Position numbers and translations under genes: made by a program. Below the pieces are notes generated by a model. The model ran no database searches. It was not told the origin of the DNA and saw only the letters and a program-made list of their open reading frames with translations. A stretch of DNA of 60,442 nt. It comes from an uncultured Muribaculaceae bacterium. GTDB lineage: Bacteria > Bacteroidota > Bacteroidia > Bacteroidales > Muribaculaceae. Of the stretch, positions 1,666-6,415 are shown piece after piece. The first letter of the stretch is position 1, and each line of letters begins with the position of its first letter. The DNA lies in assembly GCA_910584185.1 (NCBI GenBank), contig CAJTYC010000002.1, positions 1-60,442 on the forward strand. The letters run 5' to 3'.

Positions 1666-2487
1666 TTAGTAGCTTTCTTCTGGGGTGGGGAAGGAGCCGG
1701 ACTTCACGTCGTCTACGTAGTGGCCTATGGCATCGTGCATGATGGTCGCGAGGTCGGCATAACGGCGCAGGAACCTCGGTGAGAAGCCCTGGTTTATGCC
1801 GAGCATGTCGTGCATCACGAGCACTTGGCCGTCGGTGCCGCCTCCGGCGCCGATTCCAATGGTCGGGATGGTGAGTTGTTCGGAGACTTTGCGGGCCAGT
1901 TCAGCCGGAATTTTCTCAAGCACAATGGCGAAACAGCCTATATCCTCGAGCATATGTGCGTCGGCTATCAGTTTTTCGGCCTCAGCCTCCTCGCGTGCGC
2001 GAACATTATAAGTTCCGAACTTGTTGATGCTCTGAGGGGTGAGACCGAGGTGTCCCATCACAGGGATGCCGGCGCAGAGTATACGTTCGATAGACTCGCG
2101 GATTTCCGAGCCACCCTCCATCTTTACGGCTTCGGCATGGCTCTCCTTCATGATGCGGATAGCGGAAGCCAAAGCCTCCTTGGAGTTGCCCTGATAAGAG
2201 CCGAAAGGGAGGTCGACGACCACGAGGGCACGTTGGGTGCCCTTCATCACCGACTTGGCATGATAAATCATCTGGTCGAGGGTGATAGGCAGGGTTGTGA
2301 CATTACCGGCCATGACATTTGAGGCAGAATCGCCCACAAGAATCACGTCGATGCCGGCACCGTCAACAATCTTGGCCGAACTATAGTCGTAAGAGGTGAG
2401 CATGGAAATCTTTTCGCCACGCTGCTTCATCTCCGCAAGGCGACGCGTTGTGACCTTGCGCTTGTTGTCAGTAGTATTGGTAGACAT
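1666..2487 (-). CDS. panB: 3-methyl-2-oxobutanoate hydroxymethyltransferase; start taken at MSTNTTDNK, not the ORF-track start at 2847
   Basis: [50 protein letters not shown]. Confidence 0.95.
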
Positions 2488-2553
2488 CTTTAATGAGTTA
2501 TAATCAGCAATTTCGACCCGCACGCGTTTGAAATGCGTGACCCGGTCAGATTG

Positions 2554-2561
2554 CAAAATTA
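2554..2561 (-). promoter_or_regulatory. Bacteroidetes -7 promoter element (TAATTTTG) for panB-purT
   Basis: caaaatta on + strand equals TAATTTTG on - strand, about 67 bp upstream of the panB ATG. Confidence 0.6.
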
Positions 2562-2604
2562 CAAAAAAAATATGATTGGAGATTGTGCTTTCAAAATAAA
2601 TTAT

Positions 2605-2612
2605 TAATTTTG
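2605..2612 (+). promoter_or_regulatory. Bacteroidetes -7 promoter element (TAATTTTG) for the met operon
   Basis: Matches TAnnTTTG; TTG at 2583-2585 sits at the -33 position; divergent from the panB promoter. Confidence 0.65.
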
Positions 2613-2641
2613 CGGTGTCAAACAAGAGAAAAACATCTAAG

Positions 2642-2755
2642 ATGATGACGAAGTGTACATATGATAATATAAGCGTCATGGCCTGTGAGGGCATGATGAT
2701 GGTCATGTGTATGTGCATGCGCAGCCGCGAGCCGGGTGTGTCGCCTTTGTCATGA
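2642..2755 (+). CDS. Met/Cys-rich leader peptide [37 protein letters not shown] (37 aa)
   Basis: 9 Met and 4 Cys codons, including the run [10 protein letters not shown]-rich region before the ATG; lies between the promoter and metY. Confidence 0.85.
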
Positions 2756-2816
2756 CATCTTGCATAAGAGATTGAGATAAAGATGAGGCCCGGCGCACCA
2801 AGCGTCGGGCTTTTTT
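2729..2816 (+). promoter_or_regulatory. Attenuator: antiterminator (2729-2751 with 2776-2796) mutually exclusive with terminator (2786-2816)
   Basis: Terminator gcccggcgc-accaa-gcgtcgggc followed by 6 T; gccgggt and ctttgtc in the leader can pair with gcccggc and gataaag. Confidence 0.8.
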
Positions 2817-2874
2817 CTAATAGGGCAAATAGGTCAAATAATCTCATCTATCTAAACACCAAACACCAAAAACT

Positions 2875-4158
2875 ATGGATATAAAGAAACTGAAATTCGC
2901 CACACGTCAGATCCATGCCGGTCTTGACCACAATCCGGCCACCGGTTCGCGCGGTGTAGCCATCTATCCCACTGCAGCTTACCGCTTCAACGACTGCGAG
3001 CATGCAGCCAACCTCTTCAAACTCAGCGAGCCGGGCAATATCTACACCCGTCTTCAGAATCCCACCACCTCAGCTTATGAGGAGCGCGTTGCCGCACTCT
3101 ATGGCGGTGTAGGCGCACTCGGAGTGGCCTCCGGCATGTCAGCGATACTGATTACCATCACATCGCTTGCCCAGGCCGGTGACAACATCGTGGCCTCTCC
3201 TTATTTATATGGCGGCACTTACAACCTCTTCCGTATAAGCCTTCGCAAACTCGGCATCGAGGTGCGCATACCCGCGAGCGAGCGTCCCGAAGACTTCGCC
3301 GCGCAGGTCGACGACCGCACACGCGCACTCTTCGCGGAGTCGATGGGCAACCCCACTTGCGCGGTGCCCGACCTCGAAGGCCTTGCCAAGGTGGCGCACG
3401 ATGCGGAAGTGCCACTGATTGTAGACAACACATTCGGAGGTGCCGGCTACCTCTGCAACCCCTTCGACTGGGGTGCCGACATAGTGGTAGACTCTGCCAC
3501 CAAATGGATTAACGGCCACGGCACAGCCATGGGTGGCGTGATAGTCGACGGTGGCTCGTTCAATTGGGGCAACGGCAAGTTTCCAGAGATAGACGGTCCC
3601 TCAGAGGGTTATCACGGCTTGAACCTCTGGGAGGCATTTGGTCCGGTGGCGTTTATCGTGAAATGTCGAGTGGATGGGCTGCGCGACTTCGGCCCTTGCC
3701 CGTCGGCGTTCGACAGTTACCTCATGATGATCGGTCTGGAGACACTATCTCTACGCGTGCGTCATCAAGTTGAGTCAACGCGCAGGCTTGCAGAATATCT
3801 GCAAAATCACCCCAAGGTGAAGAAAGTTAGTTATGTGGGCTTCGAGGACCATCCCTCATATGCAAACGCGCAGAAATATTACCGCTTCGGCGCATCGGGC
3901 GTACTCAATGTGGAGCTCCAGGGAGACCTGGAGTCAACGGTGAGATTTGTGGAATCGCTCGAACTTCTCGCCAACATGACCATGATAGGCGACTCCATCT
4001 CAGTGGTTACACACCCGGCATCGACCACCCACAAACAACTTAGCGAGTCCGACCTCGAGGCAGCCGGAGTCACGCCGACACTGCTCCGCATATCGCTCGG
4101 ACTGGAAGATGTGGAAGATATAATAGCTGACTTCGAACAAGCATTTGCACATGTCTGA
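2875..4158 (+). CDS. metY: O-acetylhomoserine aminocarboxypropyltransferase (sulfhydrylase)
   Basis: [25 protein letters not shown]-lysine motif [24 protein letters not shown]. Confidence 0.92.
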
Positions 4159-5173
4159 GCCAAAGTATTTTAAATATGATGAGGCTTTTTGTCTCGAATC
4201 GGGAGAAAGGCTCGAGGGGCTCACTATTGCCTATCATACCTACGGCAAACTGAATGCGAGCCGCGACAACGTGGTGTGGGTGTGTCATGCGCTGACTGCC
4301 AACAGCGATGTGGCCGACTGGTGGCCGCATACGGTGGAGGCGGGGTGCTTCCTTGACCCCGACAAATGGTTTGTGGTGTGTGCCAACATACTCGGCTCGC
4401 ACTATGGCACCACCGGACCCCTCAGCCTGAATCCGGCCACGGGAGAGCCATATTATGGCGACTTCCCCAAGATAACCATCCGCGATATTGTCAACGCTCA
4501 CCGTCTGCTCGCCGACGCGCTCGGCATAGGTGAGATACACACGCTTGTAGGAAGCTCGGTGGGTGGTTTCCAGGCCACGGAGTGGATAGCCGGGGAGCCG
4601 GAACGTTTCGGGAGGTTGATACTGTTAGCCACCGACGCGAAGGCCTCGCCCTGGGCGATAGCCATCGATGAGACACAGCGCATGACAATCCTCGCCGACC
4701 CTACATATGGCGAGCGTCGCCCCGATGCCGGCATGGCCGGCATGGCGGCGGCACGCGCCATCGGTCTGCTTACATATCGCGGGCCCGAGGGTTACAACCT
4801 CTCGCAGCAAGACCCCGACGGGCATCAAGGTGAGCATCGGGCCTGCACATATCAGAGATACCAGGGGGAGAAGCTTTGCCGTCGGTATAATGCCTACTCC
4901 TACGTGACGATACTCGATGCCTTCGACACGCACGACATAGGGCGCGGGCGCGGAGGGGTGGCCGAAGCGTTGGCTCGAATCAACTGCCCCACCATAGTGA
5001 TTGGACTCAGCTCCGACATCATCTTCACACCTGCCGAGATGAAAAAACTCGCGCAGTCGATACCAAACGCTGAATACCGCGAGATAACATCTCCGTTCGG
5101 CCACGACGGCTTCTTGGTGGAACATGGTCAGCTTAACGAGATACTGACCCCATTCATCAATGCAAAGCTCTGA
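4151..5173 (+). CDS. metX: Homoserine O-acetyltransferase (MetX family)
   Basis: WVCHALT, ANILGS..GTTGP, nucleophile GSSVGG, GHDGFL; overlaps the metY stop. Confidence 0.9.
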   Translation: MSEPKYFKYDEAFCLESGERLEGLTIAYHTYGKLNASRDNVVWVCHALTANSDVADWWPHTVEAGCFLDPDKWFVVCANILGSHYGTTGPLSLNPATGEPYYGDFPKITIRDIVNAHRLLADALGIGEIHTLVGSSVGGFQATEWIAGEPERFGRLILLATDAKASPWAIAIDETQRMTILADPTYGERRPDAGMAGMAAARAIGLLTYRGPEGYNLSQQDPDGHQGEHRACTYQRYQGEKLCRRYNAYSYVTILDAFDTHDIGRGRGGVAEALARINCPTIVIGLSSDIIFTPAEMKKLAQSIPNAEYREITSPFGHDGFLVEHGQLNEILTPFINAKL

Positions 5174-5197
5174 TTATAAACTCTAAATTTGAAACAA

Positions 5198-6415
5198 ATG
5201 GAACAGATAAATATAGGGCTCTTTGGTTTCGGCACAGTGGGGCAAGGGGTATACAAGGTAATCGACAATGCAAAGAATGCGCACGCCGTGATAAGCAAGA
5301 TAGCGGTGCGCAACATATCCAAGCCGCGCGATGTGGAGGCCCCTAAGGAGCTGTTTACCGACAATCCGGCCGACATACTCGACAATCCCGACATCAACCT
5401 CATAGTGGAGGTGATAGACGATCCCGAGGCGAGCTATAGGATAGTCACGAGCGCATTGCGCAAGGGGATACCCGTAGTGTCGGGCAACAAGGCGATGATA
5501 GCGCGTCATCTACCCGAACTGATAGAACTCCAGCGGCAGTACGACACCGCGCTGCTCTACGATGCGTCGTCGTGCGGTTCGATACCGGTGATACGCAACC
5601 TGGAGGAATACTACGACAACGACCTGCTGCTCGAGGTGAAAGGCATCTTGAACGGTTCGAGCAACTACATACTGTCGCGGGTGTTCGACCACAACCAACC
5701 ATACAGCGAGGCGCTTCGCAAGGCCCAGGAACTCGGCTTCGCGGAGAGCGATCCATCGTTCGACATCGAAGGCTACGACTCTCTCTTCAAACTCATCATA
5801 ATCACCGTGCATGCCCTCGGAGTGTATGTGGCACCTTCGGATATATTTACATACGGCATATCGAATATCCACGAGTCAGATATCAGATATGCCCGCGAGA
5901 AAGGTGTGAAAATCAAGCTCGTGGCGCAGGTGGTGAAAGTGAGCGACGAGCGGTTCACCATGTTTGTCATGCCGGAGTTCGTGCCGCCGTCGCGCTACAT
6001 ATACAGCGTAGATGACGAATACAACGGCGTGGTGATACGCGGCGAGTGCTACGACCGCCAGTTCATGTTTGGCAAAGGTGCCGGGAGTCTGCCCACGGCA
6101 TCATCGATACTTTCCGACATAATGGCACGCCGCCACGACTACCGTTACGAATACAAGAAGATGGCATATGTGGACCGGCCGGAATATACCACCGATGTGT
6201 TGGTGCGCGTCTATGTGCGGTATCGCGAGACCAACATACTCGGCACACTGCCATTTGTGGAGGTGAGGGAGCAATACATGTCGAAAGAAAACAACTACGT
6301 GATAGGCGACATAAAGCTGCGCGACTTGATATCGCACCGCGAACTGCTCTCCGCCCCCGACGTATTCATAGCCAGCCTGCCCACCTTCTTCACCGACCGC
6401 GACAACGCCGAGTGA
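5198..6415 (+). CDS. hom: Homoserine dehydrogenase
   Basis: GLFGFGTVGQG, VVSGNK, GILNGSSNYIL, AQELGFAESDP, GKGAGSLPTA. Confidence 0.92.
   Translation: MEQINIGLFGFGTVGQGVYKVIDNAKNAHAVISKIAVRNISKPRDVEAPKELFTDNPADILDNPDINLIVEVIDDPEASYRIVTSALRKGIPVVSGNKAMIARHLPELIELQRQYDTALLYDASSCGSIPVIRNLEEYYDNDLLLEVKGILNGSSNYILSRVFDHNQPYSEALRKAQELGFAESDPSFDIEGYDSLFKLIIITVHALGVYVAPSDIFTYGISNIHESDIRYAREKGVKIKLVAQVVKVSDERFTMFVMPEFVPPSRYIYSVDDEYNGVVIRGECYDRQFMFGKGAGSLPTASSILSDIMARRHDYRYEYKKMAYVDRPEYTTDVLVRVYVRYRETNILGTLPFVEVREQYMSKENNYVIGDIKLRDLISHRELLSAPDVFIASLPTFFTDRDNAE

Follow-up and report, generated by a model that had tools for sequence, protein, structure and literature searches.

A candidate methionine-keyed leader-peptide attenuator upstream of metY-metX-hom in an uncultured Muribaculaceae bacterium

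Methionine genes are textbook targets of S-adenosylmethionine (SAM) riboswitches, T-boxes and MetJ/MetR-type regulators. To our knowledge, AUG codons as the basis of leader-peptide attenuation are known from predictions only, in a few organisms, and no such case has been dissected. Here we describe the leader of the metY-metX-hom genes in a stretch of 60,442 nucleotides (nt) of DNA from an uncultured Muribaculaceae bacterium (GenBank assembly GCA_910584185.1, contig CAJTYC010000002.1, positions 1 to 60,442), the whole of which we call the window. The 387-nt intergenic region between the divergent genes panB and metY holds a candidate -7 promoter element, a leader open reading frame (ORF) and a U-tailed terminator, in that order, and these elements lie 60 nt upstream of metY-metX-hom. 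We observed the sequence elements, a statistically odd ORF, its conservation, covariation of the predicted RNA helix and a faint sign of a short leader RNA. We consider it quite probable that metY-metX-hom is controlled by a leader-peptide transcription attenuator that acts through the ribosome and senses methionine, with a probable contribution from cysteine.

Known attenuators and the metY leader

As in the trpL, hisL, thrL, leuL and pheL leaders of Escherichia coli and Salmonella, the window has a short leader ORF rich in codons for the end product, an intrinsic terminator that precedes the first structural gene, and an antiterminator that shares one strand with the terminator and draws its other strand from the end of the leader ORF. 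In both, the terminator is more stable than the antiterminator, leading to kinetic control. The window leader differs in that it would sense AUG (together with UGY), in that its host belongs to the Bacteroidota, with no Shine-Dalgarno-led initiation and another promoter type, and in that its untranslated RNA is predicted to form the antiterminator. It also has no sequence or Rfam-model similarity to the classical leaders; the Thr_leader model reaches 17 bits where its gathering score is 55.

Leaders with Met codons have been described outside the Bacteroidota. MetL of Campylobacter jejuni, predicted by Porcelli et al. (PMC3847290), is a 20-residue leader with three Met codons on a short RNA before metBA. 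Its translation start was seen by translation initiation site profiling in a preprint that also notes a second Met-rich short ORF, before a methionine transporter (bioRxiv 10.1101/2022.11.09.515450). MetL and the window leader share a Met-codon ORF upstream of methionine biosynthesis genes, which for MetL was proposed to be a leader-peptide attenuator (PMC3847290), and the MetL short RNA likewise ends soon after the leader stop codon. MetL belongs to another phylum and has far fewer Met codons. In Streptomyces lividans, the metL leader (…CMCRRMCAF) before metNIQ is annotated as a methionine attenuator (PMC8079986). It too is a short leader ORF containing Met and Cys, but it is leaderless, precedes a transporter operon, and according to its authors has no typical intrinsic terminator. 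The polycysteine leaderless short ORFs of mycobacteria are reporter-tested, Cys-responsive attenuators (bioRxiv 10.1101/834739), and as proposed here, stalling at codons for a sulfur amino acid relieves attenuation of downstream biosynthetic genes. As described in that preprint, they differ from the window leader by sensing Cys only and by sequestering a Shine-Dalgarno sequence, which acts on translation, with no intrinsic terminator.

The SAM-I (S-box) riboswitch resembles the window leader in position and output, namely premature termination before met genes, and one related metY locus (L035) has SAM-I instead of a leader ORF. It differs in sensing SAM directly without translation, and SAM-I (RF00162) has no match in the window leader or elsewhere in the genome of origin, which is 95.5% complete. 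A permissive Rfam scan of positions 2300-3100 (E-values up to 10) gave no family near its gathering score, no SAM riboswitch family among the hits, and no T-box match. The SAM-II (RF00521) search was uninformative, as its control matched in none of the control genomes. We rejected a small RNA (sRNA) or toxin-like reading of the Rfam hits with the best E-values, Betaproteobacteria_toxic_sRNA (20.5 bits against 50) and MicC (17.7 against 90), because these alignments cover the terminator hairpin only.

Short ORFs in the 5' untranslated regions of Bacteroides thetaiotaomicron have been noted as 'reminiscent of leader peptides' (PMC7366714). In the literature we came across no Met leader attenuator described for Bacteroidota; the supplementary small-ORF tables of PMC7366714, and Figure S7 and Table S12 of PMC3847290, may be relevant to prior art. 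The initial annotation of this locus, made from the sequence alone, knew of no characterised Met leader attenuator in Bacteroidales. That holds for the Bacteroidota as far as we could find, but such leaders had been predicted outside it, in C. jejuni and S. lividans. Met leader attenuation as a kind is thus already in print, and this locus would be a new member in Bacteroidota.

The leader ORF and its conservation

The leader ORF (2642-2755, + strand) has 37 codons, with 9 Met (8 internal) and 4 Cys. The codon run MMMVMCMCM (2693-2719, + strand) is the proposed stalling site, and homologous Met runs are found in relatives. These positions and counts are as the initial annotation gave them. The start context is A-rich (A at -3, -11, -12, -13 and -15), and an A-rich upstream context has been described for Bacteroidetes start sites (PMC7366714).

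We compared this ORF with every ATG-started ORF of 8-70 amino acids (n=28,188) that the assembly, 2.36 Mb in 134 contigs and 95.5% complete, contains in any of its six frames. It ranks first, with 6 Met and 8 Met+Cys within 10 residues. The one other ORF that reaches 6 Met per 10 residues is a tandem repeat. Five further ORFs have 5 Met; the three that were examined all lie within long ORFs, and the remaining pair represents the two strands of a single repeat at C84. No second Met-run ORF outside a gene or repeat was found among the top-ranked ORFs examined.

A collection of species genomes yielded 80 metY loci, 78 of them with upstream sequence (33 close, 45 from distant Bacteroidota). We counted as a leader any short ORF with at least 5 Met/Cys (start Met excluded) per 10 residues within 450 nt upstream. 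Among the close loci, 15/33 had such an ORF, compared to 0/33 on the reverse complement of the same DNA, and among the distant loci 16/45 did, compared to 1/45 on the same control. The close leaders are Met-rich and the distant leaders Cys-rich. The close loci that have no leader fall into two groups, those where metY lies right behind a co-directional gene and those with a plain intergenic region. A SAM riboswitch from Rfam was found in 1 of the 20 close leaderless metY loci (L035).

Cys-dominated metY leaders occur among the distant loci (L036-L080) in Pontibacter, Rufibacter, Saprospiraceae, Chitinophagales, Thermonema and others, with runs such as MCMCCCCC (Pontibacter), CCCCCCCC (Saprospiraceae) and MMQMCCCCM. 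In the same distant set, the metY leaders of Carboxylicivirga and Thermophagus have Met-dominated runs.

To look within the family, we used an even sample of 121 genomes of the family to which the window belongs. An orthologue of the window-type metY (69-80% identity) is present in 15 other genomes of this sample, and most of the remaining genomes have a MetY paralogue of 40-47% identity. Of the 15 orthologues, 11 are preceded by a leader that has 4 or more internal Met within 10 residues, and one more (L093), which had been missed by a length filter, was added by eye for a total of 12/15. None of the 14 loci fetched for the paralogue had a Met-rich leader. The conservation of Met-rich ORFs upstream of metY orthologues, which the initial annotation offered as a check, is found in 12/15 relatives and in 0/14 paralogue loci, making these ORFs specific to this orthologue group.

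A loose pattern search for more leaders in the 121 genomes gave 35 matches, compared to 7 for a reversed-pattern control, and six of the 35 adjoin metY orthologues. The remaining 29 were rejected as leaders, since by eye they resemble coding sequence and have no further AUG run. No further members of the regulon were found in these genomes by this search, which is a weak test.

For analysis of the RNA we examined 24 leaders, of which 3 were duplicates, leaving 21 distinct leaders. The frame of the AUG run is conserved among the relatives, and Cys codons are within or beside the Met run in 17/21. The leaders are 16-65 residues long, with unrelated N-terminal parts.

Antiterminator pairing, covariation and the proposed switch

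In the window, the intrinsic terminator (2785-2816, + strand) has a stem formed by 2785-2796 and 2802-2813, an ACCAA loop and a T6 tail at 2811-2816. The stem has 12 pairs, 8 of them G-C, and an energy of -21.5 kcal/mol. The terminator had initially been placed at 2786-2816, a difference of one base. The 5' strand of the candidate antiterminator (2729-2751, + strand) consists of a conserved core, GAGCCGGG (2729-2737), and an inner part specific to the window, CUUUGUC (2745-2751), and its 3' strand (2776-2796, + strand) overlaps the 5' arm of the terminator (2785-2796). When 2720-2800 is folded without the 3' arm of the terminator, 2731-2737 pairs with 2788-2794, 2741-2743 with 2784-2786, and 2745-2751 with 2776-2782, reproducing the complementarity of the ORF 3' part to 2776-2796 that the initial annotation had noticed. 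This fold has an energy of -29.2 kcal/mol (z -2.28; 5/200 shuffles equally good). The whole leader, 2625-2825, folds at -74.5 kcal/mol (z -4.44; 0/200 shuffles equally good), and in the full-length minimum free energy (MFE) structure of the window leader the 5' part of the ORF pairs with 2745-2751.

The relatives have in common an RNA-level motif at the end of the leader ORF, (G/A)AGCCGG(G/A)TGT, which is complementary to a CCGGCT-type 5' arm of the downstream terminator. All 14 close leaders studied have an ORF tail complementary to the 5' arm of the terminator, and the complementary strand begins 5-12 nt past the last Met codon of the run. Shuffled tails equal the observed duplex energy in 0-49 of 300 trials (21/300 for the window). 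By a strict rule, 12 of these 14 leaders have a U-tailed hairpin, and the other two (L020 and L025) have hairpins with weak T tails.

Each pair of the 7-bp antiterminator core helix is formed in 16-21 of the 21 distinct leaders. Four of the seven core pairs have compensatory double changes, with pair counts of GC/AU 9/7, AU/GC/CG/UA 12/3/1/1, GC/AU 19/2 and CG/UA 18/2. Examples of compensated cores are AGTCGG:CCGACT, AACCGG:CCGGTT, ACGCCGG:CCGGCGT and GTGCCGG:CCGGCAC. A MAFFT alignment from the Met run to the terminator misaligned the terminator arms and was excluded from the pair counts. We used instead a reference-built alignment, cut to the antiterminator, in which both strands are aligned. 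In this alignment 77.2% of cells are paired, compared to 68.9 +/- 1.6 in shuffles (0/500 as high), the covariation score is 0.232, compared to 0.129 in shuffles (0/500 as high), and 10/13 pairs have changes on both sides. Slid registers on the same alignment are 25-45% paired, and because relatedness among the sequences inflates shuffle tests, we believe that this control is the more telling one. The geometry that had been compared to trp and his attenuators is thus real and conserved, and the covarying stems that had been proposed as a test were found in the core helix.

In 15/21 distinct leaders the core begins exactly 7 nt before the leader stop codon, and is therefore within the terminating ribosome (E and P sites). 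The window and L003 have the conserved motif in another reading frame, and their ORFs run on, placing the core at -21 and -24, respectively. That the motif is kept whatever the reading frame points to an RNA role and not a peptide role. The stretches between the conserved points, like the N-terminal part of the leaders, are not conserved in sequence.

To compare ribosome positions, we first calculated the equilibrium MFE of the complete leader with simulated ribosome footprints. This did not separate the states, and we used co-transcriptional snapshots instead. In the snapshots, made for 14 leaders, the RNA ends after the terminator loop, so that the 3' arm is still missing. All 14 leaders have 6-11 nt of the terminator 5' arm paired with the ORF tail when the ribosome is stalled on a Met codon of the run, whichever one, in agreement with the earlier suggestion that stalling at the Met run leaves the antiterminator free. 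With the ribosome at the stop codon and the upstream RNA masked, 0-2 nt of the arm are paired.

Based on these results, we propose the following. Transcription would start a few bases past TAATTTTG, and the 37-codon leader would be translated. When Met-tRNA(Met) is plentiful, the ribosome would reach the stop codon and cover or disrupt the 5' strand of the antiterminator; with the antiterminator blocked, the 2785-2813 hairpin would form and RNA polymerase would terminate in the T-tract ahead of metY. If charged tRNA(Met) or tRNA(Cys) runs low, the ribosome would stall in the run at 2693-2719, leaving 2729-2751 free, 10 nt downstream. This strand could then pair with 2776-2796 before the 3' arm of the terminator is made, resulting in read-through into metY. 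We infer the translation of the leader, the stalling of the ribosome and the response to methionine from sequence, and so the regulation as well. For translation, the pointers are indirect, namely the A-rich start context, the conserved frame of the AUG run and a possible 5' end at 2619/2620. Judging from the folds of untranslated RNA, read-through may be the default when the leader is not translated, and this would be fitting for an amino acid that initiation also requires.

A number of results weigh against this reading. At equilibrium, folds of the full leader keep the terminator in most simulated ribosome states, the Met-stalled ones included, and the window keeps 0.83-1.0 of its terminator pairs across the simulated states. 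The terminator is the more stable structure at equilibrium, and the switch must therefore be kinetic. When the 28-nt footprint alone is masked, 4/14 leaders (the window, L003, L011 and L017) can pair across the ribosome, and in the window 9/12 arm nucleotides can still pair. A ribosome at the stop codon would not cover the window core at 2731-2737, which is immediately behind its footprint. The occlusion step in the window therefore rests on the inner helix 2745-2751:2776-2782, an extra feature of the window that a ribosome at the shifted stop codon would cover. Untranslated, truncated RNA forms the antiterminator in 14/14 leaders (11/12 arm nucleotides in the window), so a trp-like 1:2 pause/anti-antiterminator hairpin that would enforce termination without translation is at most putative. 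Methionine starvation would also limit the charging of initiator tRNA, complicating the sensing of Met by a translated leader.

The distribution of the leader and the RNA contigs add to these points. The orthologue at L094 has no leader, the L089 leader has only 3 Met codons, though its terminator is present, and many metY loci labelled 'Alistipes' lack a leader. At L096 (G026:C10) the window-type metY is broken, with one TGA and one TAG inside two adjacent matches, and is probably a pseudogene. Five loci (L007, L008, L019, L093 and L095) have a different type of leader with no U-tailed terminator; its C-terminal sequence is ...M(P/S)M.(Y/S)MRMCR, its stop codon lies within a small hairpin (GTGCC-GTTA-GGCAC), and it may use another mode of attenuation, translational or Rho-dependent. 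Lastly, the RNA contigs described next end at 2790 and 2794, within the 5' arm of the terminator and not at the T-tract.

These contigs come from the RNA libraries of two studies and cover only the leader (2619-2794 in run X19 and 2620-2790 in run X20); X19 has one more contig, inside metY (3128-3459). DNA-like runs cross the leader boundaries, with X15 covering 2300-4339 in one contig and X17 covering all bins in several contigs. The RNA contigs are a weak hint of a discrete short leader RNA, and their starts, 7-8 nt past the -7 element, are a weak hint of a transcription start at 2619-2620 (+ strand). A 5' end there would rule out the upstream GTG at 2615 as the start codon. Contigs cannot show true ends, strand or abundance, and the parts of metY left uncovered in the RNA runs are no evidence of low expression.

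The signal might mainly be the supply of cysteine or reduced sulfur, with stalling at the Cys codons interleaved in the run. This would fit an enzyme that consumes sulfide or thiol, and the initial annotation had already remarked on the Cys codons, a remark borne out by their presence in or next to the Met run in 17/21 distinct leaders and by their dominance in distant Bacteroidota, where runs such as MCMCCCCC and CCCCCCCC precede metY. Poly-Cys short ORFs are moreover tested Cys sensors in mycobacteria (bioRxiv 10.1101/834739). However, Met codons outnumber Cys codons in this family (8 internal Met to 4 Cys in the window), 4/21 leaders have no Cys in the run, and UGC beside AUG may partly reflect constraints of RNA pairing, leaving this explanation a small chance. 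Slimmer still, in our view, is the chance that the terminated leader is also, or mainly, a trans-acting sRNA like rnTrpL of Sinorhizobium. Attenuator-derived sRNAs have a precedent (bioRxiv 10.1101/606483), and leader-only short RNA contigs were found in two libraries; these contigs are equally expected from an ordinary attenuated transcript, though, and an sRNA would add a function and not replace attenuation.

The conserved features also bear on whether the ORF is incidental to a metabolite riboswitch not yet recognised, or to a terminator controlled by a protein. The leader is strongly structured (z -4.44), and met genes are under SAM riboswitches in other lineages, with one before metY at L035. 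No Rfam family reaches its threshold here, though, and what is conserved is the in-frame AUG run, the open frame from an upstream AUG and a fixed distance from stop to core (-7 in 15/21), while the intervening sequence and the N-terminal part are not; Met/Cys-rich ORFs were also found in 0/33 cases on the reverse-complement control. We consider a riboswitch or protein-controlled terminator very improbable. A peptide that is functional itself, be it a small protein or an arrest peptide through which Met or SAM is sensed in the exit tunnel, could account for the R/S-rich C-terminal tail, such as MRSRRSRV, that many leaders have in common. This tail is encoded by the same RNA motif that pairs with the terminator arm, however, and in the window and L003 the motif is kept in another frame and so encodes different residues. 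Given also leader lengths of 16-65 residues and unrelated N-terminal parts, we find a functional peptide the least credible of these explanations, and an attenuator keyed to methionine is the reading that we prefer.

The operon, its candidate promoter and methionine synthesis

The candidate -7 element, TAATTTTG (2605-2612, + strand), fits the Bacteroidetes -7 consensus TAnnTTTG, as stated in PMC7366714, and agrees with the promoter element that the initial annotation had placed at 2605. It is the sole match to the consensus on the + strand within the 387-nt intergenic region. The exact -7 motif is found 17-55 nt 5' of the leader ATG in 13/21 distinct relatives. A further copy of TAATTTTG is on the minus strand at 2554-2561, 67 nt upstream of the start of panB (1666-2487, minus strand, divergent from metY), and is likely the divergent panB promoter. 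Two DNA-like runs have contigs with a 7-nt insertion at 2853, in the spacer that separates the terminator from metY; it is an extra copy of an AAACACC repeat and represents strain variation in a short tandem repeat.

The first gene behind the leader, metY (2875-4158, + strand), encodes an O-acetylhomoserine aminocarboxypropyltransferase / sulfhydrylase (NCBIfam TIGR01326, E 1.4e-172, 574 bits, cut-off 495). It is followed by metX, homoserine O-acetyltransferase (4145-5173, + strand; TIGR01392 E 4.8e-102, PRK00175 317 bits), for which both matches are under the curated cut-offs, making this a family-level call; its listed start is a TTG that overlaps the end of metY. The third gene is hom, homoserine dehydrogenase (5189-6415, + strand; NF004976, 311 bits, cut-off 205). 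The three genes are tightly packed, with overlaps or gaps of at most 15 nt, and no terminator-like sites above background were found between metY and hom.

As a side observation, the genome of origin (95.5% complete) has no match to MetH, MetE, or Pfam families PF02574 or PF01717. We cross-tabulated the 16 family genomes with the window-type metY (the genome of origin included) against the other 105, keeping in mind that the relatives are not independent and the assemblies are incomplete. Of the 16, two have a long MetH-type frame (at least 1000 amino acids), six have only a short stand-alone PF02574 frame (290-491 amino acids), and eight have no PF02574 match, with six of these eight listed as 99% complete. 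Among the other 105 genomes, 94 have a PF02574 match, about 85 of these being long frames. Matches to PF01717 are weak and rare (18/121 genomes), with only one (G042) among the 16. The pattern suggests that the leader-controlled operon works where methionine synthase is absent.

Methanethiol can serve O-acetylhomoserine sulfhydrylase as 'the precursor of methionine' (PMC7279501), and MetY may make methionine directly from methanethiol. Direct synthesis from gut methanethiol would make Met-tRNA a natural signal. Taking these observations together, we put forward, as a possible but doubtful joint explanation, that hom-metX-metY is a self-contained pathway, in which MetY makes Met from O-acetylhomoserine and gut methanethiol, in Bacteroidales that have lost methionine synthase; that sensing of Met-tRNA has therefore replaced sensing of SAM; and that the leaders make up a phylum-wide class, not described before, of Met/Cys leader-ORF attenuators with three strands and read-through by default. 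If true, default read-through would get round the problem that methionine starvation also impairs initiation.

Post-transcriptional control is little studied in Bacteroidota, and this locus is a well-conserved, covarying example in abundant Bacteroidales of the rodent gut, with clear mutational predictions. It offers a handle on how attenuation sensed by the ribosome works in the absence of Shine-Dalgarno initiation, and when the amino acid sensed is itself required for initiation. The methionine synthase pattern, with no such enzyme apparent in most genomes that carry this operon, bears on the cross-feeding of methionine and methanethiol in the gut.

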